Shown here piece after piece: positions 3,083 to 32,000 of a stretch of DNA of 32,000 nucleotides. Each line of letters starts with the position of its first letter. Position 1 is the stretch's first letter. Below the pieces are notes generated by a model, which worked only from the letters and a program-made list of their open reading frames with translations, made no database searches and was not told the origin of the DNA. Source of the stretch: Chloroflexota bacterium (GTDB taxonomy: Bacteria > Chloroflexota > Ktedonobacteria > Ktedonobacterales > JACDGC01); the NCBI GenBank assembly GCA_021778805.1, contig JAJYBV010000003.1:48542-80541 (forward strand), read 5' to 3'. A program made the translations under genes and the position numbers.

Positions 3083-3240
3083 ACTATATTTTTTAACGCT
3101 GCGTTATTTTTGCGCATACAATTGGCGGCTATCATTGTGAAGATCTGTATTGTGTTCCCGAAATGGCGTTCAAAAATAGTGGGAGTATTTTAGAAGAAAA
3201 TTAGAAAAGGGCGGATGAGTTTTTTTGAAGATAAAAGGGG

Positions 3241-3288
3241 CGTGCTCGAGAGGATTCGAACCTCCGGCCTTTGGTTCCGCAAACCAAT
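3241..3288 (-). tRNA. 5'-truncated tRNA (3' two thirds only), Arg-type anticodon GCG; probable att-site remnant rather than a functional gene
   Basis: Minus strand reads TTGGT-TTGCGGA-ACCAA (anticodon arm), AGGCC (variable loop), GGAGG-TTCGAAT-CCTCT (T arm), CGAGCAC-G (acceptor 3' strand plus discriminator). No matching GTGCTCG 5' acceptor strand or D arm upstream (3289-3330). Confidence 0.6.
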
Positions 3289-3426: not shown

Positions 3427-4398
3427 ATGAAACTCCCTTGGCTCCGTCTCTATACCGAAGCGCGCACCGACCTTAAATTGCGCCGACTCTCTAATGATGA
3501 ATTCCGCGTCTGGTTCAATTTGCTCTGCTACGCCGCTGAACGCGGCGATGGCGGCGTTATCCTTTTTGAAGAGGTAACGCCTTGTAACGCCATGAAACAC
3601 CCTGTAACACCCTGTAACAATGACCATCTGCATTTGCTTTCCATCGAATGCGCAGATGGCGATACCGATCTTTTAGACCGCACGTTGCATTCTTTAGTCG
3701 CCCTCCATATCATCGAATATGATGACTCTGAGATCGCTTTTATTCACTTTCAAGAACGCCAGTACGATAAACCGTCTGACTACCCCAGCGCTGTGAAAGA
3801 GCGCGTTCAACGCCATCGCGCTGCGCGTAAAGATACCACCGATGCGACCAGTAACACCATGAAACGCGATGAAACGCCAAAAAACGCAGAGATAAGAATA
3901 GATAAGATAAGAATAGATAATAATATTGCGCATTTTGCTAACGCAAAAAATGCGCAGGATGATTCTTCTTCTCAAATGCCAAATTCACATGAACCTATCC
4001 CCTTCGCGCCGAAACGAAAACCAGACGAATTTTGGGATACCTATGTCCAATTGCTGAATCATGGCCCTTCTATCTCCAAACGACTAGCTTGGGTAAAAGC
4101 CTTTAGCGAAATGAAACAAATGGGCGCAACCATCGAAGACGTGCGGAAACGCTTTGAAAATTATCGCTTGTGGTACCCAAACAAACCTCCGCCTTCTCCC
4201 TCCGCCCTCGCCGGCCAGTGGGAAGATTGCATGCGCCCCCCAACCTCTTTAGTGGCGCAAAAATCACCAAAATATGAGGACCTAACCTATGAAGAGCAGC
4301 TTGAACATAACAGACTCCGCGCACAAGAACAACGCAATCGCTCTGAAGAAAAACGCCGCCTCTTGCGTGAAGCCGGCTTCCTTACGGCTCACGATTGA
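3427..4398 (+). CDS. phage replication organizer-like protein (replisome organizer / DnaD-like N-terminal region)
   Basis: ATG 3427 has AAGGAG 10 nt upstream. N-terminus MKLPWLRLYTEARTDLKLRRLSNDEFRVWFNLLCYAAERGDGG resembles phage replisome-organizer N-domains. The gene contains iterons and an AT-rich repeat internally. Confidence 0.55.
   Translation: MKLPWLRLYTEARTDLKLRRLSNDEFRVWFNLLCYAAERGDGGVILFEEVTPCNAMKHPVTPCNNDHLHLLSIECADGDTDLLDRTLHSLVALHIIEYDDSEIAFIHFQERQYDKPSDYPSAVKERVQRHRAARKDTTDATSNTMKRDETPKNAEIRIDKIRIDNNIAHFANAKNAQDDSSSQMPNSHEPIPFAPKRKPDEFWDTYVQLLNHGPSISKRLAWVKAFSEMKQMGATIEDVRKRFENYRLWYPNKPPPSPSALAGQWEDCMRPPTSLVAQKSPKYEDLTYEEQLEHNRLRAQEQRNRSEEKRRLLREAGFLTAHD
3573..3618 (+). repeat. 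iteron cluster 1: 4.5 tandem 10-bp units TGTAAC(G/A)CCN
   Basis: GGTAACGCCT TGTAACGCCA TGAAACACCC TGTAACACCC TGTAAC read directly from the sequence, inside the replication gene. Confidence 0.7.
3850..3879 (+). repeat. iteron cluster 2: three related 10-bp units
   Basis: AGTAACACCA TGAAACGCGA TGAAACGCCA, same family and period as cluster 1. Confidence 0.6.
3891..3920 (+). repeat. perfect tandem duplication of a 15-nt AT-rich unit (GATAAGAATAGATAA x2)
   Basis: 3891-3905 is identical to 3906-3920. It is the most AT-rich stretch of the gene and lies directly after iteron cluster 2. Confidence 0.8.
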
Positions 4399-4687: not shown

Positions 4688-5112
4688 ACCATCCAACCGA
4701 CTTGCAATTTATTCCCGACCAAAACCTTACACCAGCCGAACACACAAACTATTTGCGCCGCTTTCATAAAGGCGAAGATGTATACGCTTATTTCAATGGC
4801 TCTTTTTGGAATATTTGGGACGTTACTATCCGTATTCCCATTTGTCCCGTTGCGCAGCGCGTTTGGCGCATTTGGGCGCCCGTCATCAATCAATCAGAGC
4901 AATCAGCAGATCAGCCAAAAGTTTCCATTGTTTTGGCTAAGCCGTATTTCTCTGCGCTGCAAACCGCCGAAGCAATCGCTGATATTTCCATCTATTGCCA
5001 TTGCGCGAATGACCCCGTTAAGCTGGGAAAACAATTGTTTGCGCTGGAAAATTGGCTAAACTTGCAGCAGGATGAACCAGCGCGTTGGGATGGCGCTTGG
5101 ATTGAATTTTAA
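4684..5112 (+). CDS. hypothetical phage protein
   Basis: 142-aa ORF, ATGA start/stop overlap with the upstream gene; contains copy 1 of the 107-bp repeat in frame. Confidence 0.6.
   Translation: MNHPTDLQFIPDQNLTPAEHTNYLRRFHKGEDVYAYFNGSFWNIWDVTIRIPICPVAQRVWRIWAPVINQSEQSADQPKVSIVLAKPYFSALQTAEAIADISIYCHCANDPVKLGKQLFALENWLNLQQDEPARWDGAWIEF
4854..4960 (+). repeat. 107-bp perfect direct repeat, copy 1
   Basis: GCAGCGCGTTTGGCGCATTTGGGCGCCCGTCATCAATCAATCAGAGC...TTTCTCTGCGCTGC identical to 5128-5234. Confidence 0.95.
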
Positions 5113-5293
5113 ACCAAAACCGCCGCAGCAGCGCGTTTGGCGCATTTGGGCGCCCGTCATCAATCAATCAGAGCAATCAGCAGATCAGCCAAAAGTTTCC
5201 ATTGTTTTGGCTAAGCCGTATTTCTCTGCGCTGCTCACGCCGAAGTGTATGTGTGGCGTCCAGATGACTGGGATGCGCTTGTGCAGATTTTGA
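5072..5293 (+). pseudogene. partial duplicate of the 4684..5112 gene (possibly a non-functional remnant)
   Basis: 73-aa ORF whose centre (QRVWRIWAPVINQSEQSADQPKVSIVLAKPYFSAL) is the translated second copy of the 107-bp repeat; overlaps the end of the preceding gene. Confidence 0.35.
5128..5234 (+). repeat. 107-bp perfect direct repeat, copy 2
   Basis: Identical to 4854-4960; offset 274 nt. Confidence 0.95.
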
Positions 5294-5331
5294 GCGCCCA
5301 CAGACCGTAGCTGGTAAACATGAAAATGGCG

Positions 5332-5388
5332 TGTACGTTTCAGCCCCGAAACGTACATACCGCTGTATGCTCTGTACGCAAACGTACA
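5332..5388 (+). promoter_or_regulatory. pair of palindromic operator-like sites TGTACG-N-CGTACA in the intergenic region upstream of the packaging genes
   Basis: TGTACGTTTC-AGCCCC-GAAACGTACA (5332-5357) and TGTACG-CAAA-CGTACA (5373-5388). Also direct repeat CCAAAACAGCG x2 at about 5397 and 5421. Confidence 0.45.
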
Positions 5389-5513
5389 CACCTAAAACCA
5401 AAACAGCGTATTAGTCACCAAAACAGCGCCGGGTAAAAGAAGTATAAAAATAGCACAGAAGTACCATATTTTATGGATAATTTTGTATACTACAGAAAAC
5501 ATATTTTAGTAGC

Positions 5514-5548
5514 AGCGCCGGCCTTTCGAGGGCGGTGAGGATGGAAAT
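5514..5548 (+). repeat. solitary CRISPR-repeat-like unit A (most diverged copy)
   Basis: AGCGCCGGCCTTTCGAGGGCGGTGAGGATGGAAAT; GC hairpin plus GAGGATGGAAAT tail. Confidence 0.6.
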
Positions 5549-5789
5549 ATTGACAGCGAAGATGGATAAACGGCATGTGAAATATGCCTTACGCCTGCAA
5601 CAGCGCAGCTTAGCAGCCATTGAAACGCTGTTTGCAGAAGGAAGAATTAACGCAGCAGCTGCGGTTGCCATGATGCGGCTGGCCGTGGATATGGAACGGC
5701 GCATTGGCGCGACAGAACAGCAAGAACATACAGCGCCGCAAATCGTCATTCGCATTGAATATGTGAATGACTGGCGGCATGAAGCGTAG
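5541..5789 (+). CDS. small phage protein upstream of terminase large subunit (possible small terminase subunit by position only)
   Basis: ORF track 5535..5789. ATG at 5541 or 5562. The ORF is bracketed by repeat-like units A and B. Confidence 0.45.
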   Translation: MEILTAKMDKRHVKYALRLQQRSLAAIETLFAEGRINAAAAVAMMRLAVDMERRIGATEQQEHTAPQIVIRIEYVNDWRHEA

Positions 5790-5822
5790 CGCCGGCCTTT
5801 CGGGGCCGGCGAGGGTTGAAAC
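5788..5822 (+). repeat. solitary CRISPR-repeat-like unit B
   Basis: AGCGCCGGCCTTTCGGGGCCGGCGAGGGTTGAAAC; perfect 8-bp stem CGCCGGCC/GGCCGGCG; begins inside the TAG stop of the preceding ORF. Confidence 0.65.
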
Positions 5823-5862
5823 AAAAAAATAAACAAGCAAACAAATAAACAAACAAACAACT

Positions 5863-7179
5863 ATGGCCGAATTGAACATTAAGCTGCCCGCGCCACACCC
5901 CGGGCAACAAGCCGTGCGCACCCAAATGCGCCGCTTTAACTGGCTTTCCGCCGGCCGGCGCTGGCGCAAAACCACCTTGTTCATGGCCATCGCTGTGGAA
6001 GATGTGCTGGCCGGCTATACCGACTTGTGGGGCGCCCCCACCTATGACCAGGTGATGATCGGCTGGGAAGAAATGCGCCGCGCCGTTGGCGGTGTGTTTC
6101 AATTTAATAAAACGGAAAAAACGGCCAAAGGCCCTACCGGCGGTAAATTATTATTCCGCAGTTTGGACGATCCAGAAAACGCCCGCGGCCACACCGTTAC
6201 CGGCCGCGCATTTTTCGATGAAACCGCCGATATTCCCGAACGCGCCTGGAATGAAATTATCCGCCCGATGCTCATGGATTCAGGCGCCGGGCTGATGGCT
6301 GGCGGCACACCAAAAGGACGTAATTGGTTCTGGCGTGAATGGGTCGCCGCGCACGATAGAGCCGATAGCGCTGCATGGCAGGTTCCTACGCTGGGCGCCG
6401 AAATTATTGATGGCAAACTGTATCGCAAACCGCACCCCTACGAAAACCCGGATATCCGGTTTGATGAATTGCGGCAAATGTTTGATACCATGCCGGAACG
6501 AAGTTTTCGGCAAGAAATTCTGGCAGAATTTCTGGAAAACGCTGGAGGCGTCTTTCACTCCTTCAGCGCATGCGTAGGGGGGCGCTTGGTATCGGCGCCG
6601 CCTCACCCCCAAACCCGCTATTGCATGGGGGTAGATTTAGCAAAATATAACGACTATACCGTTTGCGTTGTGATGGATATGCAGCAGCGCGCCGTTGTCG
6701 CCTTTGAACGCTATAACCTTGCAGAATGGCCGCTGCAAAAAGCGCGGATCAGCGCGTTAGCCGCAAAATGGAATAACGCCGCCGTTTGGATGGACACCAC
6801 CGGTGTTGGGGACCCGATTTTTGATGACCTTGCCCGCGCCGGGCTGCGCATTACCGGCTATACCCTTACCGCGATTTCCAAACGCGAACTGATTGAAAAG
6901 CTGATTTTGCTGATGGAGCAGCAGCACATTACATTCCCGGATATTCCGGAATTGCTGCAGGAATTGGCCGCCTATGAATACGAACGGCTGCCCGCCGGAG
7001 GTTTGCGCATGACGGCGCCGCAGGGATTGCATGATGATTGCGTGATAGCCCTGGCCTTAGCGTGCTGGCCACTGGCCGTAAGCGGAACGCAAACCGCGCT
7101 GCCACAAGAATCTATTGAGCTGCTGCGCACCCAATACACCGATTTGCATAGCCGTTCCTTGCTGAAAAAAACATTTTAA
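5863..7179 (+). CDS. terL: terminase large subunit
   Basis: 438 aa; Walker A-like SAGRRWRKTT; ...FRSLDDPENARGHTVTGRAFFDETADIP... ATPase core; C-terminal RNaseH-like nuclease motifs (MGVDLAKYNDYTVCVVMD, HDDCVIALALA). Confidence 0.9.
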   Translation: MAELNIKLPAPHPGQQAVRTQMRRFNWLSAGRRWRKTTLFMAIAVEDVLAGYTDLWGAPTYDQVMIGWEEMRRAVGGVFQFNKTEKTAKGPTGGKLLFRSLDDPENARGHTVTGRAFFDETADIPERAWNEIIRPMLMDSGAGLMAGGTPKGRNWFWREWVAAHDRADSAAWQVPTLGAEIIDGKLYRKPHPYENPDIRFDELRQMFDTMPERSFRQEILAEFLENAGGVFHSFSACVGGRLVSAPPHPQTRYCMGVDLAKYNDYTVCVVMDMQQRAVVAFERYNLAEWPLQKARISALAAKWNNAAVWMDTTGVGDPIFDDLARAGLRITGYTLTAISKRELIEKLILLMEQQHITFPDIPELLQELAAYEYERLPAGGLRMTAPQGLHDDCVIALALACWPLAVSGTQTALPQESIELLRTQYTDLHSRSLLKKTF

Positions 7180-7213
7180 GCGCCGGCCTTTCGAGGCCAG
7201 TGAGGATTGAAAC
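7179..7213 (+). repeat. solitary CRISPR-repeat-like unit C
   Basis: AGCGCCGGCCTTTCGAGGCCAGTGAGGATTGAAAC; starts on the last base of the terL TAA stop. Confidence 0.65.
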
Positions 7214-7220
7214 AAAGAAA

Positions 7221-7604
7221 ATGGCAAATTTTGACTATCGCGGCAATGAACTGACCGCTTTTGGCCGCTTTACCGCCATTATCAGCGGCGGCGCATCGGG
7301 CGCAGCAGGCCAGCTTGTTCCCCCCGCAAGCTTGAATTCCACCGGCCCGCAACCTGCACAATTTTTAAGCGCCGGCGGAATCACCGGCGAACCCATGCGG
7401 CTGATAAAAATTATCATCGCCGCAGGCACTGGCAGCGTCAGCGTGTATGATACCATCAACGCCGCAGGCGCGGTTGCCGCCGCATTGCTGTTCAGCGTTG
7501 CAACCACATCTCCCGGCGCTGTATATGCGCTGGATGTTCCCACCAACACGGGATTATGGATAAGCGTTTCCGCAAATACCCAAATAACCGCTATTCTCAG
7601 CTAG
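7221..7604 (+). CDS. hypothetical phage structural-region protein
   Basis: ORF track 7200..7604; first ATG at 7221 (MANFDYRGNE...); Gly/Ala-rich, no recognisable family. Confidence 0.55.
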   Translation: MANFDYRGNELTAFGRFTAIISGGASGAAGQLVPPASLNSTGPQPAQFLSAGGITGEPMRLIKIIIAAGTGSVSVYDTINAAGAVAAALLFSVATTSPGAVYALDVPTNTGLWISVSANTQITAILS

Positions 7605-7640
7605 CTGCCTAAACCCAAGCCGAAGAAATGGAGCAACGGG

Positions 7641-9131
7641 ATGAACCGACGCCATCGCCGCAAACACGCTGCACAGCAGCCACAATTAACCGCACAATCC
7701 ATTCAGGGAGTTCAGTGGCCCGAGCAAACTCCATTAAATAAACCATACCCCGAAATGCCCAACATATCCGCAAAAGCGCCGCCCGTCTACCAGTTGGGCG
7801 CGTCGGGAACCGCCATTTTCTCGGGCATTATTACCAACGAGGAATATAACCCCGATCTCTATTGGCGCGACGCGCAAAAAATATATGACCAAATGCTGCG
7901 CAACGATGGCCAAATAAACGCCGTGCGCACCGTGGTAGAACTGCCCATCCGCCAGGCAACGTGGAGCATTGAACCCGCTTCGCGTTCCCCGCGCGATATG
8001 GAAATAGCCAGCTTTGTGGAAACCGCGTTGTTTCATGATATGACGTATATCACAACGGAAGGCAACAAAATAACGCAAAAATGGGGCGATATTCTGCGCC
8101 ACGCCCTGATGAGCCTGTGGTATGGCTTTATGCCGTTTGAAATTAATTACCGCATCGATGACGGCTGGGTAAAATGGTCTCGATGGACGCCACTTTTGCC
8201 GCGCACCCTGTGGCGCTGGTGGGTAGGCGAAGATAATGAACTGGTGGGGGTGCAGCAGTGGACCTTCCGGAATTATTCTTATGAGTTTATTAACATTCCC
8301 GTTGAAAAATTACTGCTGTTCGTGCATCGCCAAGAAGGCAACAACTATGAAGGACTTCCGCTTCTGCGGCAAGCGTATAAGCACTGGTTTTATAAAACCC
8401 AATTTGAAAAAATAGACGCCATCGCCATGGAACGCGAAGCCGTTACCCCGCCTATCATCTATCTGCCGCCAAACCACACAGCCGCAGATGTGGATGCCGC
8501 ACAAGCCATTACGCAAAATCTGCGCGTGAATGAATCCATGGGGGTAACGCTGCCCGCAGGCTGGGACCTGATGTATCCCAAAAATTGGCAGAAATATGGC
8601 GCACAGCCGCTGCCCAGCATGCAGTATCACGATACGATGATAGCGCGGAACGTGCTGGCCCAATTTATTAACCTGGGTTCCACCGATACCGGCTCGTATG
8701 CGCTGGCAGATACCCAAGTGCAAATGTTTTTGCGCAGCTTGCAAACCATCGCCAACGATATCGCGGATGTTATTAATCTCGATGCGATACCGAAACTGAT
8801 CGACTACAACTATAATCAGGTTGCGGTCTATCCCAAACTGCGCTGCTCCAAGCTCGCGGCAGATATTACCATCTTATCTACCGCGCTGCAGCGGCTGGTC
8901 AATATGCCATCGCCGCTGATTTCCCCCGACGCGCAGCTGGAAGATTTTTTACGCGCAGAGCTTGGTTTGCCCACCGCGCCAAGCAGCCCGGTTACAAAAG
9001 TGAACCCAACCGCCGCGCGAAAACCAGCGCGGAAACTAGCCGCAGAACCGCGCAAAGACGCCATTGAATCTGCGCTTTATTCCCAAGAATATCGGAGGCG
9101 CAACTATGCGCGATGTGCGGCGCCGGCGTGA
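7641..9131 (+). CDS. portal protein (Mu gp29 / DUF935-like)
   Basis: 496 aa, located between terminase and the MuF-like gene; the motif region YWRDAQKIYDQMLRNDGQINAVRTVVELPIRQATWSIEP is typical of this portal family; GGAG RBS. Confidence 0.8.
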   Translation: MNRRHRRKHAAQQPQLTAQSIQGVQWPEQTPLNKPYPEMPNISAKAPPVYQLGASGTAIFSGIITNEEYNPDLYWRDAQKIYDQMLRNDGQINAVRTVVELPIRQATWSIEPASRSPRDMEIASFVETALFHDMTYITTEGNKITQKWGDILRHALMSLWYGFMPFEINYRIDDGWVKWSRWTPLLPRTLWRWWVGEDNELVGVQQWTFRNYSYEFINIPVEKLLLFVHRQEGNNYEGLPLLRQAYKHWFYKTQFEKIDAIAMEREAVTPPIIYLPPNHTAADVDAAQAITQNLRVNESMGVTLPAGWDLMYPKNWQKYGAQPLPSMQYHDTMIARNVLAQFINLGSTDTGSYALADTQVQMFLRSLQTIANDIADVINLDAIPKLIDYNYNQVAVYPKLRCSKLAADITILSTALQRLVNMPSPLISPDAQLEDFLRAELGLPTAPSSPVTKVNPTAARKPARKLAAEPRKDAIESALYSQEYRRRNYARCAAPA

Positions 9132-10182
9132 AACCGATCCGGAATATGTGCGGCTGCATACCGGCGGCGTTACCCTGCTGCGCCATTCGCTGCGCCGCTA
9201 TCTGCGCGACCTGATTGATGAAAACCCGCAGGCAAAATCGCTGTTTATTGCCCGCCACGCGGCGCTGATTGAAAACCTGTACCGCAAAGGCTATACCTTG
9301 GGGCAACAGCAATATTGGCGGCGTAGCTCTCATTTGCCGGCGCCGGCGACCGTAAAACAACCGCCGGATACGGCAAAACTAACGTTCTATACCGTTAGCG
9401 TACCAAAAATGGCCGAGCAGCTGCAATCTGCGCTACAGGCGCCGGCGGCGCTGGATGAATCGGCGGCCAAACAATGGGTTCAGCAAGCCGCAGTGCGTAT
9501 AGACCTTCAGGCAGATGTAGCGTGGTCTGGCGCGCAAGATGGCTATACGCAAATGGCGCTGGGCGATCCCGCGCGGCCATATAATTTCATCTATTGGATA
9601 TTAGATCCGGGCGCACAGCATTGCAGCGATTGCCCCGATTACGCCGCCGGTTCGCCATATGGCTGGCCCGGAAGCCACAACAATGAACTTTCTGCCACGC
9701 CCGGTGATGGCAGCACAGCGTGCGGCGCCGCCTGCAAATGCGATTTAGAATATGGCCCGGGGCCGGATGATGATATTGGCGATTGGTCGCCGCTGCAGCC
9801 GCCATCTTCCACCGAGCCGGGGTACACCACAACCCCGCTGGTCGTTCATCAGCCGCAAGCGCCGGCCCAAGAACTAACCAACAACCAAATCTATGCGCTC
9901 GATTCGTTTCGCCAAGCCGCAAACGAATGGGAACACTTGCAGCAGCGCTTCTTTTTGCCAGACCTTGGAACCTTATTTGCGCCGAACGCTGCGTTTTTAG
10001 AGCAAGACCTTACCGCAGCAGACCCCGCAATACGCAAAGCAATCCTAAAAATACTTACTGCCGTACAAAATTGGAGGGAAACAATGACCGATACCACAAC
10101 GCGCAGCTCACACCAAAGCAAACCACTCGGCAAAGCGCCAATAACGCGCACGAAACCCAGCAGCGGCAAAGGCAAAGCATGA
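9106..10182 (+). CDS. minor head / head morphogenesis protein (MuF, SPP1 gp7-like)
   Basis: ATG 9106 with GGAGG 7 nt upstream (ORF track starts at TTG 9064). Cys cluster HCSDCPDY...CGAACKC is typical of MuF-family C-terminal regions. Position directly after portal. Confidence 0.65.
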   Translation: MRDVRRRRETDPEYVRLHTGGVTLLRHSLRRYLRDLIDENPQAKSLFIARHAALIENLYRKGYTLGQQQYWRRSSHLPAPATVKQPPDTAKLTFYTVSVPKMAEQLQSALQAPAALDESAAKQWVQQAAVRIDLQADVAWSGAQDGYTQMALGDPARPYNFIYWILDPGAQHCSDCPDYAAGSPYGWPGSHNNELSATPGDGSTACGAACKCDLEYGPGPDDDIGDWSPLQPPSSTEPGYTTTPLVVHQPQAPAQELTNNQIYALDSFRQAANEWEHLQQRFFLPDLGTLFAPNAAFLEQDLTAADPAIRKAILKILTAVQNWRETMTDTTTRSSHQSKPLGKAPITRTKPSSGKGKA

Positions 10183-11801
10183 AACAATTCGATGTATTCA
10201 AATGGCTCTCTCAGCCCATTGCGCTGGCAGAATCGCGCAGCAGCTGGATAATGGTTATGCCCCTTGGGACCTTTCATCATCCCTTGTATGGAACCTTAAC
10301 CTTTTCGCGCGCAAAACTGGCCGCATTTCAGCGTAATTTTGATGCGCGAGTGCGCAAAATTGATATCGCGCTGGATGTCGATCACAAAGCCGGCACCAGC
10401 GATTCACGCGCGGCCGGATGGATACGCAAGCTGGCGTTCCGCCCAGCGCAATCTAATCCACCTGCCCTTGCAGGATTATATGCGCACATTGCATGGACCC
10501 CTTACGGCCGCAGCCTGATTGAAAAAAAGGAATATCGCTATTTTTCACCGGAATTTGGCGAGTATACCGATGAAATATCAGGGAAAAAATATTCCAACGT
10601 GCTCATTGGCGGCGCGCTGACAAACCGCCCGTTCCTGAAGATCATGCCCCCGGTGCAGCTGGCAGAACAAGTCAGCTGGAAACCATGGGGAAGCATTGAT
10701 AAAGCAAACTTGCCTGCCGCGTGTTTTTTGCTGGTGGGGAACAGCGCCAAAAAATCTACTTGGAAACTGCCAATCTACGAAGCGAACAACGGAAAACGCG
10801 GCAAATTAAACGGCAACGCGGTAAAAGCCGCTTACGCTGCGCTGCATGGGGCGCGAACTGGCGTACCAATGCGTGTGCCGCCAGCTGTGCGCCAAACCAT
10901 AGAGCGCCTGTACAAAAAATTATTTGGGGATACAACAAGCATGGATACACACACAAAAGCAATTTTAACGGAAATTCTCCGCAAACTTGCCGAGCTGAAC
11001 CAAGGGCAAGATGATGAGGATGCGTTTGAGGATGTCAAGCAGTTTTTTGCCGACCGGAAAAAAGCCGGCAAAGCAAAGAAACCGCAAGATGACGACGACG
11101 ACGACGCAGAAGATGATGATGAGGATGGCGATGAGGATGAAGAAGAGAACGACCCGGAAGATGATGACGGCGCCGATGAGGATGGCGATGACGGCGAAGA
11201 AGCAGATGAACCAAAAGCGGCGGCAAAACACCGCGCGCGCCACAGCCGAAGCCATACCACAAAACGCAGACCGAAAAAAGCGTTTGATCCGGCAATGGGC
11301 AAAACGCTGGCAGAGCAGCAACAGCGCTTAGCGGAAATGGAAATGAAGCTGTACGAAAACGAAATAGACGCCGTGCTGCGTGGCTGGGAAACCGGTAAAA
11401 ACCTTTCGTTTGCAACAACCCAAAGTGCAATTATACCGAAAACAAGGGATATTGCCGGCGTTACCCAACGGCGCCGCACAAAGGTGCAGCTTACACCTAA
11501 AAGCGCGTTGGCCATTCGCAGCTTTATGTTGGATGAAGCCTTTGAACTGGATGAAAAAGCGCGCGGCAAACTGCTGGATTTGATTCAAACCCTGTTATCC
11601 GAAAGCTTTGTAGAAACAGGGGCGCGCGGCGGCAGCTTCGATCAGGAATCGCGCTGGAGCATGAAAGATACCGAAGGCAGTGTTTTAGCCGAAGTTGCCA
11701 CCCAATTGGCGGCAAAAGACCACAAAACATTGGACGATCTGTCTTCGGATGAGCAGTTAGCCTATTACGTAAAAGCTGAAAAAATACTTACAGCCCAATA
11801 G
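10179..11801 (+). CDS. prohead protease-scaffold fusion protein (Mu gpI-like) with poly-acidic linker
   Basis: ATGA overlap with the upstream stop. MKQFDVFKW...IALDVDHKAGTSDSRAAGWIRKL...YRYFSPEF matches Mu-like prophage protein I motifs. D/E-only tract encoded about 11088-11210. The long ORF 9783..11801 has its N-terminal 132 codons inside the upstream gene. Confidence 0.75.
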   Translation: MKQFDVFKWLSQPIALAESRSSWIMVMPLGTFHHPLYGTLTFSRAKLAAFQRNFDARVRKIDIALDVDHKAGTSDSRAAGWIRKLAFRPAQSNPPALAGLYAHIAWTPYGRSLIEKKEYRYFSPEFGEYTDEISGKKYSNVLIGGALTNRPFLKIMPPVQLAEQVSWKPWGSIDKANLPAACFLLVGNSAKKSTWKLPIYEANNGKRGKLNGNAVKAAYAALHGARTGVPMRVPPAVRQTIERLYKKLFGDTTSMDTHTKAILTEILRKLAELNQGQDDEDAFEDVKQFFADRKKAGKAKKPQDDDDDDAEDDDEDGDEDEEENDPEDDDGADEDGDDGEEADEPKAAAKHRARHSRSHTTKRRPKKAFDPAMGKTLAEQQQRLAEMEMKLYENEIDAVLRGWETGKNLSFATTQSAIIPKTRDIAGVTQRRRTKVQLTPKSALAIRSFMLDEAFELDEKARGKLLDLIQTLLSESFVETGARGGSFDQESRWSMKDTEGSVLAEVATQLAAKDHKTLDDLSSDEQLAYYVKAEKILTAQ

Positions 11802-11828
11802 GAAAGATATACAAGGAGGTTCTTCGGT

Positions 11829-12287
11829 ATGGCTTTTGAAGTTGATACCTTGCAAGATTTTAGCTTTCGCGCCAGCGCAAACGTTACGGCGCTTACGTGG
11901 GCCGGCAATCCGCCAACCTACAGCGGAGGCGGCATTCCCCAATATTATGTGGTTACCCCCGATGTAACAACCGGTAACGCCGAAGATATTATTGTTGCCA
12001 TCAGCACAACCGTTCAGCCGCTGGGCATTGCGCAAGACGCGCCAGCCTCGGGTCCGGGCCAAAGTGTGCGCGTGCGCACCGGCGGTGTGAGTAAAGCGAT
12101 TGCCGGGGGCGCCATCAGCTATGGCGACCTTTTAATGGTAAACGCTTCGGGGCAGGTTGTTACCGCTACCGCTGCTGGCGCCACAAACTTTTTTCTGATT
12201 GGCCGCGCCCTTACAGCTGCCGCAGAAATCGGCGACGTTATTAGCGTGATGATCGAGATCGGCGCAACACAATACATTAATGCGTAA
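11829..12287 (+). CDS. head decoration-like protein (DUF2190-type guess)
   Basis: 152 aa, strong AAGGAGG RBS, immediately upstream of the major capsid gene, Gly/Ala/Val-rich beta-type sequence. Confidence 0.5.
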   Translation: MAFEVDTLQDFSFRASANVTALTWAGNPPTYSGGGIPQYYVVTPDVTTGNAEDIIVAISTTVQPLGIAQDAPASGPGQSVRVRTGGVSKAIAGGAISYGDLLMVNASGQVVTATAAGATNFFLIGRALTAAAEIGDVISVMIEIGATQYINA

Positions 12288-12289
12288 CC

Positions 12290-12324
12290 AGCGCCGGCCT
12301 TTCAGGGCCGGTGAGGAATGAAAC
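12290..12324 (+). repeat. solitary CRISPR-repeat-like unit D
   Basis: AGCGCCGGCCTTTCAGGGCCGGTGAGGAATGAAAC; 3 nt after the decoration gene stop, 27 nt before the major capsid ATG. Confidence 0.65.
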
Positions 12325-12350
12325 AAAGAACATACAATACGAGGTGAAAT

Positions 12351-13334
12351 ATGCCGGGACAAGCGCCAGCAAATATGACAAGCCGCAGTGTACACCAGAG
12401 TATACCGCTGACGAATTTAAGTATTGGCTATCATCCTACTGGAATGATAGCTGAAAAGGTTTTTAGCGTTTTCAAAGTGAAAAAAGAAAACGACAACTAT
12501 TATAAATGGGATAAAGGGCAAGCCTTCCGCGTAGATAGAACCGATGGCTATGGCACGCTGCGCGCCGATAGATCACGCCCAAAACGCCGCAACTACGGCG
12601 CAACCGAAGCCGGCTATGTTGCGGAAGAATTCGCGCTGGAAACCGGCATCAGCGACCGGGAATATAGCAACGCTGATAGCGCGTTGCAATTAGAGCTTTC
12701 CAAAACACGCCGCGTGCAAGATGAAATTCTGCTGGATCAAGAAATTCGTGTGGCTGCTACCTGCCTGAACATCGCAAATAATGCCGGCTCTATTACCCTC
12801 AGCGGAACAAGCCAATGGAATAACGCCGGATTTGTCAGCCAAACTAGCGGCCAGCATTCCGCCATTTATGGCGAATTTGAAGCCGGAAAAGACACAATCC
12901 GCAAAAATACCGGCGGATTGTTTCCCAACACCGTGGTTATTCCCTATAGCGTGGCAGCCATTATGAAAAATGACCCCGGCTTGGAGGATCTGGTGAAATA
13001 TACGCACCCCGATTTGATGGAACAAGGGCTGCTGCCGCGCACCCTGTGGGGCATGCGCGTGCTGATACCAACGGTGGTATATACCACTTCTGTTGAAGGC
13101 GAACCATATGTGGGCAATGATGTATGGGGAAAAAATGTGTGGATGGGGTATATCAATCCCGAACCCGGCTTAGACATCCTAACGTATGGATTGATTTTAC
13201 GCGCGCGCGAATGGCAAGTGAAAAGCTATCGGGTTGAAGAAGAAGATTCTACCATCTTCCGGCCGAGCATTCTTCAGGCAGAAGCGTTAATCGCCGCCGA
13301 TTGCGGCTATCTGATACAGTCTGCTATCGCATAA
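12351..13334 (+). CDS. major capsid protein
   Basis: 327 aa, position after protease-scaffold and decoration genes; N-terminal region (NLSIGYHPTGMIAEKVFSVFKVKKENDNYYKWDKG) resembles lambda gpE-type major capsid proteins. Confidence 0.8.
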   Translation: MPGQAPANMTSRSVHQSIPLTNLSIGYHPTGMIAEKVFSVFKVKKENDNYYKWDKGQAFRVDRTDGYGTLRADRSRPKRRNYGATEAGYVAEEFALETGISDREYSNADSALQLELSKTRRVQDEILLDQEIRVAATCLNIANNAGSITLSGTSQWNNAGFVSQTSGQHSAIYGEFEAGKDTIRKNTGGLFPNTVVIPYSVAAIMKNDPGLEDLVKYTHPDLMEQGLLPRTLWGMRVLIPTVVYTTSVEGEPYVGNDVWGKNVWMGYINPEPGLDILTYGLILRAREWQVKSYRVEEEDSTIFRPSILQAEALIAADCGYLIQSAIA

Positions 13335-14964: not shown

Positions 14965-15449
14965 TAAAAAAACTTGGCGCGGCGGCGCAAACTGCGCTGG
15001 CAAATACGCTGAACACAAACATCAACACGCAAATAGACGCCGTAGCGGCAGCCTGGAATGATGGTATTCCGCTGCCGCATATTACAAACATTTATGCCGG
15101 CTACCGCACCGTCATCGGGGAGTATCCCGCTATTGTGGTGAACGCACAAAAAGGGAAACAAACCGCCAATGGCGCATCCCTTTGGGCTGAAATAGACCAT
15201 ATTGTTGAAATTACCGTCATTGTTCAAGCTGACGACGCGCCAACACTCGACGCGCAAATACAGCGATACTTGGTGGCCATTTGGCAAGTTCTTATGCAAA
15301 ATCAGCAGCTTGACGGCTCACTAAGCGGATTAGCGGGCGTAGACCCGATGGAATATGGCCGCAGCGGCATGTACCCGCTGGAAAAATCGACGCTGCTTAT
15401 GGAAGCCGCTGCCTGGAGTGTAACAGTGCATGTAATTGAAAGCGTATAA
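14961..15449 (+). CDS. neck / tail-terminator candidate (by position)
   Basis: 162 aa, ATGA overlap with the upstream gene. Confidence 0.45.
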   Translation: MIKKLGAAAQTALANTLNTNINTQIDAVAAAWNDGIPLPHITNIYAGYRTVIGEYPAIVVNAQKGKQTANGASLWAEIDHIVEITVIVQADDAPTLDAQIQRYLVAIWQVLMQNQQLDGSLSGLAGVDPMEYGRSGMYPLEKSTLLMEAAAWSVTVHVIESV

Positions 15450-24697: not shown

Positions 24698-24730
24698 AGG
24701 TGGTTGTTTCTATAATGGAAACAACCACCT
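24698..24730. terminator. perfect 13-bp hairpin, candidate bidirectional terminator at the phage-array junction
   Basis: AGGTGGTTGTTTC-TATAATG-GAAACAACCACCT; followed by TTTC on the plus strand and by ATTTTAT on the minus strand; its last 2 nt are the first 2 nt of CRISPR repeat 1. Confidence 0.55.
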
Positions 24731-27700
24731 TTCAGTATCCTCAACGGATCGAATGGCAATGAAACATATGCAACGATTTATTGCAGTTCAACCCTTTGTC
24801 ACCTTTCAGTATCCTCAACGGATCGAATGGCAATGAAACGGCTATTTTCAGCACCAGTCACCAGTCCAGGCGCTACCTTTCAGTATCCTCAACGGATCGA
24901 ATGGCAATGAAACCGCAAGGCTTAGCCTTGTGTAACCCGCAACAGGCAACCTTTCAGTATCCTCAACGGATCGAATGGCAATGAAACAGCGATTGCTGGC
25001 GCTGACCGAATTTACCAAGCAAATTCTCCTTTCAGTATCCTCAACGGATCGAATGGCAATGAAACTGCGCGATTGCGCAAGCGCAGGAATACCGGGACGA
25101 TCCTTTCAGTATCCTCAACGGATCGAATGGCAATGAAACGTCATCGTCACAAATAATCCATACAACCAATTATCCGCCTTTCAGTATCCTCAACGGATCG
25201 AATGGCAATGAAACACTCCGCAATTATGGAGAAACGTTTTTAATCCGTCACTTTCAGTATCCTCAACGGATCGAATGGCAATGAAACATAGTCTGACACA
25301 ACGCTGCGCAATCGCGCAAGCGCCTTTCAGTATCCTCAACGGATCGAATGGCAATGAAACTGCGGCAGACTTTGCCGCAAACGGCTACCCTGAAACTTTC
25401 AGTATCCTCAACGGATCGAATGGCAATGAAACATTTCCGAATCAGAATTGTCCTGCTCCTGCACCGCCTTTCAGTATCCTCAACGGATCGAATGGCAATG
25501 AAACTAACGACAATGGCAAAATATGATGTAACTTTCAAATGCTTTCAGTATCCTCAACGGATCGAATGGCAATGAAACTCACGCGCTGCGCGCGGCGCGG
25601 CGTGATCGGCACAATCTTTCAGTATCCTCAACGGATCGAATGGCAATGAAACGTTACAGCGCGTTACATCGCGATACATCGCGTTACACTTTCAGTATCC
25701 TCAACGGATCGAATGGCAATGAAACCGACGCGAGACATTCAAATCTACGACAACATCCACAGCTTTCAGTATCCTCAACGGATCGAATGGCAATGAAACA
25801 CCCTATTTGTATGAGCAATTTGGGAAATACGAACCTTTCAGTATCCTCAACGGATCGAATGGCAATGAAACACCACTGCTCTGAAAATATCACAGATTAT
25901 TCTTTCAGTATCCTCAACGGATCGAATGGCAATGAAACATATAGTTTCTCCCCGCGAATGAGAAACGAACGACCTTTCAGTATCCTCAACGGATCGAATG
26001 GCAATGAAACATATGACCCCAACGACGTGGTCGCGGCGCGGCCCCCCTTTCAGTATCCTCAACGGATCGAATGGCAATGAAACCTCGAACCAGATGGCTA
26101 CGTAGTCATCCGGATTTTTGCTTTCAGTATCCTCAACGGATCGAATGGCAATGAAACTTACATCAGTAATCTAAATAATCCCTATCCCCTCGCCGCTTTC
26201 AGTATCCTCAACGGATCGAATGGCAATGAAACAACGAAAGTAAATACGTTGCCTGATTCAACGCTTCGATCTTTCAGTATCCTCAACGGATCGAATGGCA
26301 ATGAAACATCAACAGTATTTCGTTCTGTCTGTAGGCGTCGAGCTTTCAGTATCCTCAACGGATCGAATGGCAATGAAACTTTCATGTATCCGTTGATGAT
26401 GTGTTGCACGCTGCTCTTTCAGTATCCTCAACGGATCGAATGGCAATGAAACTTAGTCCAGTCATTGACGAATGCCGCAAAAACAGAGATCCTTTCAGTA
26501 TCCTCAACGGATCGAATGGCAATGAAACGCAGCATGGGAAATAGTAACTATGTCATTTTTTTTTTCCTTTCAGTATCCTCAACGGATCGAATGGCAATGA
26601 AACAGCATTCATCCCTCCATATCCATCACTGCTGCGAATATCTTTCAGTATCCTCAACGGATCGAATGGCAATGAAACACTAATGCCAGTAAACCGGCTG
26701 ATTGACGCAATACCTTTCAGTATCCTCAACGGATCGAATGGCAATGAAACAAATTGTTACCGTTACGAGTCCCGCGACGGGATCATCTTTCAGTATCCTC
26801 AACGGATCGAATGGCAATGAAACCCACCGTAGAAAGCCGCGCGGGATACTAACTCACACACCTTTCAGTATCCTCAACGGATCGAATGGCAATGAAACAT
26901 AGATGTCATATACGTATTCGCTATATTGACGCCACTTTCAGTATCCTCAACGGATCGAATGGCAATGAAACTCATCTGACCTCATCGCCATGGATTGTTA
27001 ATTCCACGACCTTTCAGTATCCTCAACGGATCGAATGGCAATGAAACATCGGGAATCTGCTACGATCCGCGGTATGGATCCAGCTTTCAGTATCCTCAAC
27101 GGATCGAATGGCAATGAAACGCCGGTACTATCTGCTGCATACGTAAAATTGCTAAACTTTCAGTATCCTCAACGGATCGAATGGCAATGAAACAACAAAT
27201 ATCGATAATTTACAACTAGTCCTGCAATCCTTTCAGTATCCTCAACGGATCGAATGGCAATGAAACTGACCAGCGCCATTTCCGAGATACCCACGAATCC
27301 GGTCTTTCAGTATCCTCAACGGATCGAATGGCAATGAAACAGTAACAACTTGTGCAATCCTGCATAGGTGTACGTAGCTTTCAGTATCCTCAACGGATCG
27401 AATGGCAATGAAACCTGCCGAGCAGCTGTACCACGAATACCTGCAGAAGTCTTTCAGTATCCTCAACGGATCGAATGGCAATGAAACGTAGAGCACCTTT
27501 AGAACAAAGGTGCGTTAGGATAAACTTTCAGTATCCTCAACGGATCGAATGGCAATGAAACCAGATTTTCCCGCATTAGTCCCTACGTACACCTATGCCT
27601 TTCAGTATCCTCAACGGATCGAATGGCAATGAAACGTGTCGTTATGCTTGCCATGTTAGCCTCCAGTGTGATCTTTCAGTATCCTCAACGGATCGAATGG

Positions 27701-30700
27701 CAATGAAACTTCATGGGGTATGAACGGAATGCACCGTTCATTACCACTTTCAGTATCCTCAACGGATCGAATGGCAATGAAACTTGCACTATCCAGCTGC
27801 CACATGCACCGCATGAGCTCTTTCAGTATCCTCAACGGATCGAATGGCAATGAAACACGTACACTTATGCAATCCTGCATAAGTTGTTACTAGCTTTCAG
27901 TATCCTCAACGGATCGAATGGCAATGAAACAGTGTCGTTATGCTTGCCATGTTAGCCTCCAGTGTGATCTTTCAGTATCCTCAACGGATCGAATGGCAAT
28001 GAAACAGCTTTTGCGGTGAGTATGGGATCGTGATACTCAACTTTCAGTATCCTCAACGGATCGAATGGCAATGAAACGTACACTTATGCAGGATTGCACA
28101 AGTTGTTAGTAGCTTTCAGTATCCTCAACGGATCGAATGGCAATGAAACTCCAGATGTCAGCCTACAGCTCAATACATTAAAGAACTTTCAGTATCCTCA
28201 ACGGATCGAATGGCAATGAAACCAGCCTCAGACTGAGACGCTGTTTGACCTTCTGAATCTTTCAGTATCCTCAACGGATCGAATGGCAATGAAACAAAAT
28301 CGCTCAAATTTGCATTCTGGCGCCAACGATTTCTTTCAGTATCCTCAACGGATCGAATGGCAATGAAACTGAACAGCCTGTCGAGCACTATTTAAATACG
28401 CCAGATCTTTCAGTATCCTCAACGGATCGAATGGCAATGAAACTTCGCCATTTATCCTAACGCACCTAGGCTAGAAAATCCTTTCAGTATCCTCAACGGA
28501 TCGAATGGCAATGAAACATACACCAAGCATAGCTACTTCTTATGCTGAAGAATCTTTCAGTATCCTCAACGGATCGAATGGCAATGAAACATTGCAGCAG
28601 ATTGCATCCTAGTCATTCTAGGCATTTTCCTTTCAGTATCCTCAACGGATCGAATGGCAATGAAACCGGAATCGATTCCGATATAACGCCAGCCAGTCAT
28701 AGACTTTCAGTATCCTCAACGGATCGAATGGCAATGAAACCGAAGCGTAAAACACGTTCAGAACATCTCCATACGGAACTTTCAGTATCCTCAACGGATC
28801 GAATGGCAATGAAACAAGATTGCCAGCTGTATACGCGCTTACCGCTGACGCCTTTCAGTATCCTCAACGGATCGAATGGCAATGAAACTAGAATGACTAG
28901 GATGCAATCTGCTGCAATGCAGCCTTTCAGTATCCTCAACGGATCGAATGGCAATGAAACGTATACGCAGCTGAAATCATCGACTGCCCAAGTTATGCTT
29001 TCAGTATCCTCAACGGATCGAATGGCAATGAAACCTACTAACAACTTATGCAATCCAGCATAAGTGTATGAACTTTCAGTATCCTCAACGGATCGAATGG
29101 CAATGAAACGATATGCTACATGCGCAAACACGGCTGCGACCGAAGCTTTCAGTATCCTCAACGGATCGAATGGCAATGAAACGCAACTGTAGCATTGTAG
29201 CGCGAAAAGTTTATTCAGCCTTTCAGTATCCTCAACGGATCGAATGGCAATGAAACCCATTCGACGGATGATTGCAGATGCTGAAACGCATCCTTTCAGT
29301 ATCCTCAACGGATCGAATGGCAATGAAACGAATACTGCGGGTGAGCTGTCCGATACACCTGCCATCTTTCAGTATCCTCAACGGATCGAATGGCAATGAA
29401 ACAATGGGACGAATCTGCTCAACATGACGAACAGCATTCCTTTCAGTATCCTCAACGGATCGAATGGCAATGAAACCCAAATGACGCGCTTTCTATGGCA
29501 TCATTGGAGGCTTAGCTTTCAGTATCCTCAACGGATCGAATGGCAATGAAACATCTGGCGATTTCTAAATCGCCAGAAAATTGTTCCTCTTTCAGTATCC
29601 TCAACGGATCGAATGGCAATGAAACTCGCTGAACGCGCAGGGTTTATTGTTCTATTAAAAACTTTCAGTATCCTCAACGGATCGAATGGCAATGAAACAG
29701 CTATGGGAACACCTCCACCGTCAAACCCGCCACCCTTTCAGTATCCTCAACGGATCGAATGGCAATGAAACTTGACAAGGTCGTTGCTGATGTTCGGCGT
29801 CAATTGCCTTTCAGTATCCTCAACGGATCGAATGGCAATGAAACGAAGCGATTCGGCTCCTGTATTTTGCGCTGGAGCATGACTTTCAGTATCCTCAACG
29901 GATCGAATGGCAATGAAACTTCCCGCAGTTACTGTTCCTTGTGTAGCGCGCTGAACCTTTCAGTATCCTCAACGGATCGAATGGCAATGAAACGGTTAAT
30001 GCAACACTTCCAGCCGGAAGGGTGATACTAGCTTTCAGTATCCTCAACGGATCGAATGGCAATGAAACCATTCTCCGTTACAGATAGAGCCTGCTGAACA
30101 CATTCCTTTCAGTATCCTCAACGGATCGAATGGCAATGAAACTTTTGAGGAGGCATTAAAAATGCCTAGAAGAATGACGCTTTCAGTATCCTCAACGGAT
30201 CGAATGGCAATGAAACTTGGAATCCACTGACAGGTTGTGATAAGATCAGCACACTTTCAGTATCCTCAACGGATCGAATGGCAATGAAACACACGTATTG
30301 ATAGAAGTAAAGATAGCGTCAGTTGCCCTTTCAGTATCCTCAACGGATCGAATGGCAATGAAACCATTGATATAACTCCTTAAAATTCGTTGTAATGCAG
30401 CTTTCAGTATCCTCAACGGATCGAATGGCAATGAAACTGACGCGATTGCCGGTGATCACCTCGCCGAGAAATCTTTCAGTATCCTCAACGGATCGAATGG
30501 CAATGAAACTAGCGCTGCTGGAGTGCATCGCTGATCGTGAATGTGCTTTCAGTATCCTCAACGGATCGAATGGCAATGAAACGTCTTCGGGACGCAGCGA
30601 ATCTGTTGCGGATCGTGTCTTTCAGTATCCTCAACGGATCGAATGGCAATGAAACACTCGATCCGCTCCTGCAACGGGACACCACCGAAGTCTTTCAGTA

Positions 30701-32000
30701 TCCTCAACGGATCGAATGGCAATGAAACGTGAACCATGCACCAGCAGATGAAAAATGCCGGATCTTTCAGTATCCTCAACGGATCGAATGGCAATGAAAC
30801 TGCAACGAAACGCGGCGCAGTGGAAGAACTATTAGTGCTTTCAGTATCCTCAACGGATCGAATGGCAATGAAACACGATTTCGCGAACGCATCCATCTCA
30901 CATCAGCAGACTTTCAGTATCCTCAACGGATCGAATGGCAATGAAACTTATGATCTCACCATCCTGATTCTCTCGCTAGAGACTTTCAGTATCCTCAACG
31001 GATCGAATGGCAATGAAACAACATGGAGAAACTGTCCGGCGCAACTGCGCAGAAACTTTCAGTATCCTCAACGGATCGAATGGCAATGAAACCTGGGCGC
31101 TTCAACTGCGGGTCACGCGCCTCAATGAGCTTTCAGTATCCTCAACGGATCGAATGGCAATGAAACAAATAGCGCACGCCGTCTCACATAGTTGCCCCCG
31201 CGAACTTTCAGTATCCTCAACGGATCGAATGGCAATGAAACGAACCAGAGAAAATGCACACGAAAATACAAACTAATCCTTTCAGTATCCTCAACGGATC
31301 GAATGGCAATGAAACATAAACGATTCATTATCGAGCGCGAATCGCGATTTTATCCTTTCAGTATCCTCAACGGATCGAATGGCAATGAAACTTTGCAGCG
31401 AAATTTGCCCGATACCGGCGCCGGGTCTTTCAGTATCCTCAACGGATCGAATGGCAATGAAACGTATTTCCGCCGCGAGCCAGGTTTTTCCGGCGCCGGT
31501 CCTTTCAGTATCCTCAACGGATCGAATGGCAATGAAACCTATGAATATGAGATATACATCTCACAAAAAAATTTCTTTCAGTATCCTCAACGGATCGAAT
31601 GGCAATGAAACCGACGTGCTCGCGCGGAGGGGGGTTGCGCCGGAAGGCTTTCAGTATCCTCAACGGATCGAATGGCAATGAAACATCGCGCGCCGCCGGC
31701 GGCGCGATTTTTACCACGAGCCTTTCAGTATCCTCAACGGATCGAATGGCAATGAAACGTGTTCGCGACACCCGTTTGCACCCGCGCCCCGGCCTTTCAG
31801 TATCCTCAACGGATCGAATGGCAATGAAACGCCCATTTGATATTCATTGCAGCATTTTCGTCTCTGTCTTTCAGTATCCTCAACGGATCGAATGGCAATG
31901 AAACCCAACAGCATTCCCAGTCCTGGGGAGTGCTTGACAACTTTCAGTATCCTCAACGGATCGAATGGCAATGAAACCGCAGTGCGCTCCGCAAATACCC
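24729..32000 (-). CRISPR. CRISPR array, 99 identical 37-nt repeats and 98 complete spacers (30-41 nt, mostly 35-38), continuing past the window end; class 1-like repeat; minus-strand transcription inferred with modest confidence
   Basis: Repeat CTTTCAGTATCCTCAACGGATCGAATGGCAATGAAAC counted by hand at 24729, 24803, 24877 ... 31941. All ORF-track proteins here are repeat translations (SILNGSNGNET, LSVSSTDRMAMK, FQYPQRIEWQ). Orientation comes from PAM-side anchoring of overlapping spacers, see findings. Confidence 0.98.

Follow-up and report, generated by a model that had tools for sequence, protein, structure and literature searches.

Four solitary type I-C CRISPR repeat units at gene boundaries in the late operon of an integrated phage-like element

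Solitary repeat units, single CRISPR repeat copies carried by viruses and proviruses, are said to have been catalogued for the first time by Faure et al. in 2019. Such units act as RNA anti-CRISPRs (Racrs), and a type I-C example, RacrIC1, has been validated (Camara-Wilpert et al., Nature 2023, PMC10651486); RacrIC1 lies 11 nucleotides (nt) downstream of an anti-CRISPR (acr) gene with which it is co-transcribed, and among 2,103 viral units 83% match the CRISPR subtype of the host (PMC10651486). Viral mini-arrays that resemble CRISPR RNAs (crRNAs) form a separate class, which needs a second repeat and a spacer (10.1101/2024.10.29.618823), and recombination between solitary units and host arrays has been proposed previously (PMC8616872). 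Here we describe four short hairpin elements, units A to D, in a 32,000-nt stretch of DNA from a Chloroflexota bacterium (contig JAJYBV010000003.1, positions 48,542–80,541; hereafter the window, with position 1 as its first letter), where they lie in the packaging and head operon of a phage-like element that is followed by a CRISPR array. An initial annotation of this DNA had noticed the four elements and related them to the repeat of that neighbouring array. From comparison with known repeats we are highly confident that they are solitary copies of a different repeat, that of a type I-C CRISPR system.

A degenerate motif pattern derived from the reported consensus matched the window four times, always on the plus strand, and had no match in 100 dinucleotide-preserving shuffles. 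Direct reading and alignment gave a natural unit length of 37 nt in all four copies, with a mean column identity of 91%: unit A at 5512–5548 (GCAGCGCCGGCCTTTCGAGGGCGGTGAGGATGGAAAT), unit B at 5786–5822 (GTAGCGCCGGCCTTTCGGGGCCGGCGAGGGTTGAAAC), unit C at 7177–7213 (TAAGCGCCGGCCTTTCGAGGCCAGTGAGGATTGAAAC) and unit D at 12288–12324 (CCAGCGCCGGCCTTTCAGGGCCGGTGAGGAATGAAAC). All are intergenic and sense to the phage genes. The sites, strand and intergenic placement assigned to them at the outset are therefore retained, but the length of 35 nt given then is short by 2 nt at the 5' end. Minimum-free-energy folding returned one layout for 4/4 units: nine base pairs form the stem, the loop has 4 nt, and the last 11 nt make up a single-stranded tail, the order of hairpin and tail being as first described. 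The stem is perfect in B and D and carries a single internal mismatch in A (G10/G21) and in C (C8/A23), while pairs 5-26 and 7-24 are invariant across the units and pair 6-25 is either G-C or G-U. Unit C ends in the canonical tail AGGATTGAAAC, to which the tails of the units are identical at 9–11 of 11 positions: A, the most degenerate copy, ends in AGGATGGAAAT, B in AGGGTTGAAAC, a variant that occurs in real I-C arrays too, and D in AGGAATGAAAC. The best-conserved parts of the units, the stem base and the 3' overhang, are those that Cas5d, which cuts type I-C repeats, is reported to read (PMC5965381).

When the window was searched with a covariance model at E-values up to 10, only the four units were returned, and no further or degenerate repeat copy. 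Because no second degenerate repeat lies near any unit, the units are not mini-arrays, a view already taken in the initial annotation on the basis of their spacings; these are 274, 1391 and 5111 nt, far from the ~30–40 nt of the spacers in an array. No U-tract follows the units, tails of the AGGATTGAAAC type run into A-rich sequence, and a terminator scan called 0/4 of them.

Rfam was scanned with positions 5000–13000 of the window. All four units aligned over the full model positions 1–37 of CRISPR-DR9 (RF01322; consensus GUAGCGCCCGgCcaCaAgGcCGGGCGAGGAUUGAAAC), with 40.4 bits for B (E 1e-6), 29.1 for D, 27.3 for C and 20.4 for A, all below the curated gathering score of 45; unit A also matched CRISPR-DR29 (21.1 bits). 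Ungapped comparison with the repeats of metagenomic type I-C arrays (L147/L148, L129 and L102) gave 30–34 identical positions of 37, and the L147/L148 repeat has the loop TTTCGA, as in the units. These repeats represent a 37-nt type I-C variant of the form GTWGCRCCGGCC-loop-GGCCGGYGAGGATTGAAAC. A pattern derived from the units, run on 185,579 species-representative genomes among which the host genome is not included, found two loci, and a scan of metagenomes found more than 115, mostly arrays, with up to 98 repeats. Cas genes accompany such arrays: in an Armatimonadaceae metagenome-assembled genome (MAG; L102) the genes for Cas3 and a protein of the Cas5d family flank an array with 54 or more repeats (GTAGCACCGGCCCTTCGGGGCCGGTGAGGATTGAAAC), and at L181 the genes cas3-cas5d-csd1(cas8c)-cas7-cas4-cas1-cas2 lie directly upstream of 71 repeats of the unit family. 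The tail AGGATTGAAAC is the 11-nt 5' handle left by Cas5d on type I-C crRNAs, and the proposal that the elements have the hairpin-and-handle architecture of class 1, Cas5d-cut repeats was borne out by the folds and by the repeat matches. Elsewhere in the collection (L111/L113, ~4437–4544 of L113) we observed a two-repeat I-C mini-array whose second repeat is degenerate (…GAGGATCGGAAG); full arrays are present on the same contig, and the mini-array may specify a regulatory RNA that resembles a crRNA.

The repeat of the neighbouring array compares quite differently with the units. Without gaps, this 37-nt repeat (GTTTCATTGCCATTCGATCCGTTGAGGATACTGAAAG) is identical to them at 13–18 positions of 37, against 30–34 for the I-C repeats, and the only common part is the tail motif TGAGGAT..TGAAA. 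It has no match to a CRISPR-DR family of Rfam, unlike the units, its stem has 4 bp as against 9 bp, and its folding energy is at the level of shuffled sequence (z about 0.1–0.2). The array has a different, unstructured repeat family. We could reproduce the hand alignment of unit C with the minus-strand repeat on which the kinship had been based (22 matches over ~29–30 gapped columns), but it is modest when set against shuffles: gapped local scores against the neighbouring repeat had p values of about 0.001 (C), 0.004 (A and D) and 0.2 (B), which puts B at shuffle level. The claimed relationship to the neighbouring repeat is not supported.

With respect to the genes, unit A heads the packaging and head operon after an AT-rich gap, and its tail contains the called ATG (5541) of an 82-amino-acid (aa) gene (5541–5789, plus strand), which is bracketed by units A and B. 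The C-terminus encoded by this gene, IRIEYVNDWR, matches that of the 121-aa small terminase (TerS) of a related phage (L037, 2211–2576), and the match is confined to this motif; the gene is without the N-terminal helix-turn-helix half of the small terminase, in the position of which unit A is found. Unit B overlaps the stop codon TAG (5787–5789) of the same 82-aa gene. The large terminase gene, terL (5863–7179, plus strand), is bracketed by units B and C, of which C overlaps the terL stop codon TAA (7177–7179); 7 nt separate its end from the ATG (7221) of a 127-aa gene that is conserved in a related phage. Unit D follows without a gap on the TAA of the cement, or decoration, gene (11829–12287, plus strand) and ends 26 nt before the ATG (12351) of the major capsid protein gene (12351–13334, plus strand). 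Direct reading thus confirmed that B, C and D stand at stop codons and that D lies just upstream of the capsid start, as had been pointed out.

Solitary units are often trailed by tandem copies of their own last bases. An AAAC-rich tract of ~10 copies (5819–5860, plus strand) runs from the end of unit B to the ATG of terL at 5863, and no Shine-Dalgarno sequence is present in this tract upstream of terL. Elsewhere we saw CAAAC three times and GAAAC three times after units (L101, 4316–4333; L239, 1838–1852), and at L175 (5368–5378) a second copy of the whole 11-nt handle after a solitary unit. The tandem tail copies suggest slippage, or selection for an unstructured A/C-rich leader.

We then compared the phage of the window with 85 loci related to it through terL (39–61% identity; ~0.84 Mb, from viral contigs and assemblies). 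Neither a covariance model built from the four units nor a motif script found a unit in any of them, and in the closest syntenic relative the equivalent genes either touch or leave a gap of 31 nt. Because they are absent from the 85 related loci, the units are lineage-specific 37-nt insertions; the notion of a signal conserved in this phage lineage was rejected on the same result. The GenBank phage collection (cultured phages) contained no unit, and no close DNA relative of the phage was found. The narrow unit pattern likewise had no match in viral contigs, and broader patterns were required, with which solitary units of the I-C family were recognised in ~25 other viral contigs and in several metagenome contigs. 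In L218/L130 there are two, one before the terminase gene and one after the capsid gene block; in L233/L157/L236 a unit lies 4 nt after a gene for a protease–major-head fusion, and in L232 59 nt after the head protein gene. In L218, a phage unrelated to that of the window, the first of the two units starts one base after a tRNA-Met gene (region 40–151) and ahead of the gene for the large terminase.

All collected type I-C arrays together yielded 1,565 unique spacers, and these were matched against the phage loci. L218 and L219 are targeted by arrays L147, L148 and L212, and L239 by arrays L133, L153, L172 and L213, with spacer-protospacer matches of 91–100%. In both groups the array repeat is identical, at 37/37 positions, to the solitary unit of the targeted phage. 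Spacers directed against phages that carry a unit identical to the array repeat are the signature expected of an arms race based on repeat mimicry.

Solitary I-C units also occur outside phages. On a cellular contig one such unit lies between ssb and rpsR of an rpsF-ssb-rpsR operon (L159, 1016–1052), another is found 17 nt upstream of an Flp pilin gene on the minus strand of L150 (plus coordinates 3518–3706), and in a Binatia chromosome (L101, 4279–4315) a third precedes the gene for a NUDIX hydrolase. All three are sense to the downstream gene and stand just before its ribosome-binding site. Over the solitary units, the 20 nt that follow contain 35% A versus 20% in spacers (p 2e-9) and resemble translation-initiation regions. 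Solitary units share the orientation of about 22 of 30 upstream and 23 of 32 downstream neighbours, as judged by GC3-weighted gene calling, which is still crude.

Our favoured interpretation, to which we give a probability of roughly one half, is that the units act as Racr-type decoys against a type I-C system, with cleavage of the late mRNA by Cas5d coupled to this action. An RNA decoy of the solitary-repeat kind was one of the functions put forward in the initial annotation, and the I-C identity together with the comparison of phages and arrays makes it the best supported. According to this model, the units, inserted in the sense strand into four intergenic gaps of the packaging and head operon, would be carried by the late polycistronic mRNA, on which each would fold into the repeat hairpin with its 11-nt handle (AGGAUUGAAAC). 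A cognate Cas5d would bind the stem base and the 3' overhang, and is predicted to cut after the stem, that is, after 5537 (A), 5811 (B), 7202 (C) and 12313 (D). Cas5, Cas7 and Cas8c would assemble on the resulting guide-less RNA and would be titrated away from real crRNAs, which is the action of a type I-C Racr. In any cell with a cognate Cas5d, the decoy model would make cleavage of the late mRNA unavoidable, with cuts ahead of the terS-like gene and of the capsid gene and on both sides of terL as a necessary by-product.

Several observations weigh against this interpretation. Expression from the late operon is late for blocking interference, and known Racrs are found behind their own promoter or beside acr genes, unlike these units; no acr gene is recognisable near them, the small neighbouring genes being without a Pfam or PHROG match. 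None of the 1,565 type I-C spacers matches the phage of the window (0/1,565), and no cas genes are present in ~28 kb of upstream chromosome. An anti-CRISPR role does not explain the cellular units ahead of rpsR, the Flp pilin gene and the NUDIX gene. The GC content of the units is 57–70%, compared with 40–44% in the host flank. Finally, no integrase is visible in the window, the terS-like gene is short, and each unit departs from canonical repeats at 1–3 positions, because of which the units could be decaying relics.

The carrier of the units is a phage-like element integrated at a tRNA-Arg gene. At its left end the 3' 50 nt of tRNA-Arg(GCG) (3239–3288, minus strand) remain as a classical attachment-site remnant, and in a related strain, whose aminotransferase is 93% identical, the tRNA is intact (L252, 7751–7825) and an asparaginase gene stands where the phage cluster would be. 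The GC content is 0.40–0.44 in the host flank and 0.50–0.58 in the cluster, a shift from 0.42 to 0.52. The cluster (~3400–24694) encodes a large terminase, a Mu-type portal, a Mu-like protease/scaffold, the cement protein, the major capsid protein and tail proteins, and all of its large structural genes are intact. The integrated element may be defective, or its remainder may lie beyond the array. The tRNA-Arg remnant and the empty site point to an ordinary integrase-type insertion and argue against integration through repeat homology. We rejected an integration of the phage into the array by this route, there being no repeat remnant on the left side, and the fusion of phage and array by shared homology, which had been suggested in the initial annotation, is further contradicted by a common block of at most 7 nt. 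A genome-wide dispersed host repeat was discarded as well, as no copy of the unit occurs in the ~13 kb of upstream chromosome scanned. The same contig context recurs in several MAGs and other assemblies, all of them clonal, and the junction of phage and array is identical in five; GCA_027350185.1, GCA_027399375.1, GCA_027399335.1 and GCA_016276955.3 are MAGs with this contig. An assembly chimera of phage and array arising through a spacer match was rejected in view of these five independent assemblies and since none of the array's spacers has a match in the phage part of the window.

Upstream of the cluster the chromosome encodes histidine kinases, response regulators, MerR, a helicase and a branched-chain aminotransferase. 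Among named organisms, this aminotransferase is most similar to those of Ktedonobacteria and Thermogemmatispora (62–68% identity), a weak hint of Chloroflexota. The genes at 592–1551 of the window and at 15323–16282 of L250, upstream of the aminotransferase gene, are tandem paralogues that are 81% identical; their 319-aa products have a signal-peptide-like N-terminus and no Pfam match. Within the protease/scaffold gene, an imperfect 24-nt tandem repeat (11086–11208) encodes an acidic, Asp/Glu-rich stretch, and this low-complexity repeat is the source of the only blastn matches to cultured jumbo phages.

The neighbouring array (24729–31977, minus strand) consists of 99 identical copies of its 37-nt repeat (CTTTCAGTATCCTCAACGGATCGAATGGCAATGAAAC), the terminal copy on the phage side included, and continues past the edge of the window. 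A perfect 12-bp hairpin (24698–24730; GGTGGTTGTTTC-TATAAT-GGAAACAACCACC) marks the junction of the last phage gene with the array, its final base being also the first of repeat 1. T-rich sequence follows the hairpin on both strands (TATTTTAT on the minus strand), and from its sequence it looks like a bidirectional terminator that would close both the last phage gene and a minus-strand array transcript. This geometry agrees with the earlier reading of the array on the minus strand; that reading does not, however, imply kinship of the units to the array. Some array spacers are duplicated or overlap, in part in opposite orientation (for example, 27636–27672 equals 27932–27968; also 27341–27377, 28078–28112 and 29035–29072), a pattern expected of repeated or primed acquisition from one target. 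Since neither the intact tRNA nor an integrase is present in the window, the array may be inside the integrated element, or it may belong to a second island at the same tRNA.

An alternative to the decoy, raised in the initial annotation too and unlikely in our view, is that the selected function is mRNA processing, the phage borrowing the Cas5d of its host to cut the late transcript at gene boundaries. Upstream fragments would then end in a protective hairpin, and the cistrons of terL, the 127-aa gene and the capsid gene would start with a 5'-OH and a short, unstructured leader, by which stability and translation of the cistrons would be uncoupled; cellular genes would use the same trick. Consistent with this, every unit abuts a stop codon or sits 7–40 nt before a start codon, although an insertion that survives in a dense phage genome must be intergenic and hence close to a start codon anyway. 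Units adjoin the major head gene in four unrelated phages (unit D of the window, L218/L130, L233/L157/L236 and L232), are mostly co-oriented with their flanking genes, and are followed by 20 nt that are A-rich rather than spacer-like, with frequent duplications of AAAC or of the handle; the position of the cellular units ahead of rpsR, Flp pilin and NUDIX genes also fits, as does the chemistry of Cas5d, whose cleavage leaves 5'-OH and 2',3'-cyclic phosphate ends (PMC5965381). However, related phages manage without such sites, a non-essential and horizontally mobile host system would be a fragile basis for capsid expression, and the finding that a unit equals the repeat of arrays targeting the same phage points to counter-defence. 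A published natural precedent was not found in the literature searched. The wider proposal that type I-C repeats have been exapted as general cis-acting RNA processing and expression elements cut by Cas5d, in phage and cellular operons alike and with the decoy action secondary or absent, appears unlikely to us; on this proposal the cuts would segment operon transcripts and thereby govern how stable, and how well translated, the mRNAs of abundant products such as capsid and terminase are.

Distinctly unlikely, in our judgement, is that the units are non-functional relics of recombination with, or capture from, the I-C arrays of a former host, left in a defective prophage. The deviations in every unit with stem mismatches in A and C, the want of an integrase, the terS gene devoid of its N-terminal half and the GC difference between element and host flank are all compatible with decay, and the assemblies are clonal and so give no evidence of purifying selection; yet four independent insertions of the full 37 nt, all intergenic and on the same strand, are hard to obtain without selection, the large structural genes are intact, and other phages have one or two perfect copies in comparable places. 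That the units are instead host-independent RNA hairpins (attenuators, 3'-end stabilisers or translation signals) whose likeness to CRISPR repeats is convergent seems improbable. A GC-rich hairpin right after a stop codon is a common stabiliser of upstream mRNA, and the GAGGA of unit C, whose end lies 14 nt ahead of an ATG, is a possible weak Shine-Dalgarno sequence, but the identity to real repeats spans the 11-nt tail and the 5' GTAG in addition to the stem, U-tracts and terminator calls are lacking, and such elements are absent from the 85 related phage loci. Least credible, and in our view highly improbable, is that the units mimic the repeat of the neighbouring array, either as a Cas6 decoy for that system or through recombination of phage and array. 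For it speak the weak gapped similarity of the tails, which reaches p values of 0.001–0.004 in three units, the array abutting the phage cluster, and the terminator geometry, which fits transcription of the array from the minus strand. Against it stand the low ungapped identity, the non-significant score of unit B and the shorter stem; in addition, the longest common block of 7 nt is too short for homologous recombination, no array remnant lies on the other side of the phage, and the tRNA-Arg remnant and empty site explain the integration.

These results correct an attribution, in that the system which the units target, or from which they derive, is of type I-C and is not the adjacent array. 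If the decoy interpretation holds, the Racr class gains an unusual configuration, with four copies within a structural operon, and the environmental I-C arrays whose spacers are directed against phages bearing the identical repeat lend the decoy idea support at the level of populations. Two recurrences are left unexplained by the decoy model, namely units beside head genes in unrelated phages and units before rpsR, Flp pilin and NUDIX genes. They raise the testable question of whether a CRISPR repeat nuclease processes ordinary mRNAs in nature, and if the exaptation proposal were true, this phage would, through its four units, be enlisting a CRISPR nuclease of the host to shape its late transcripts.

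Among known systems, phage-encoded RNAs of the Cracr and CreA/CreR kinds share with the units that they are derived from CRISPR and engage host Cas proteins. Those RNAs have a spacer-like segment between two (pseudo)repeats, which pairs with a cas or toxin promoter, whereas the units of the window have no second repeat and are each followed by a ribosome-binding region. Engineered Csy4/Cas6 sites serve as insulators between cistrons in synthetic operons. They, too, place a repeat hairpin between a stop codon and the next ribosome-binding site, and their cleavage would give separately stable cistrons; these are man-made, and the literature searched offered no natural example. With the repeats of type I-C arrays the units have in common the length, the 9-bp stem, the 4-nt loop and the 11-nt AGGATTGAAAC handle, and they differ in not being arrayed and in having no spacers. 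The closest likeness is to Racrs: the units match a known repeat, are intergenic, have no partial repeat in their flanks and reside in a phage-like carrier, as solitary repeat units do, and each is a single copy with the repeat fold in a (pro)viral element. With RacrIC1 in particular they share the type I-C flavour, processed by Cas5, and a placement for co-transcription with a protein gene. They differ from described Racrs in that each is slightly degenerate, in lacking dedicated promoter placement and a recognisable acr neighbour, and in being present as four copies at cistron boundaries of a late packaging and head operon. The units thus belong to a known class, in an unusual multi-copy and operon-embedded arrangement.

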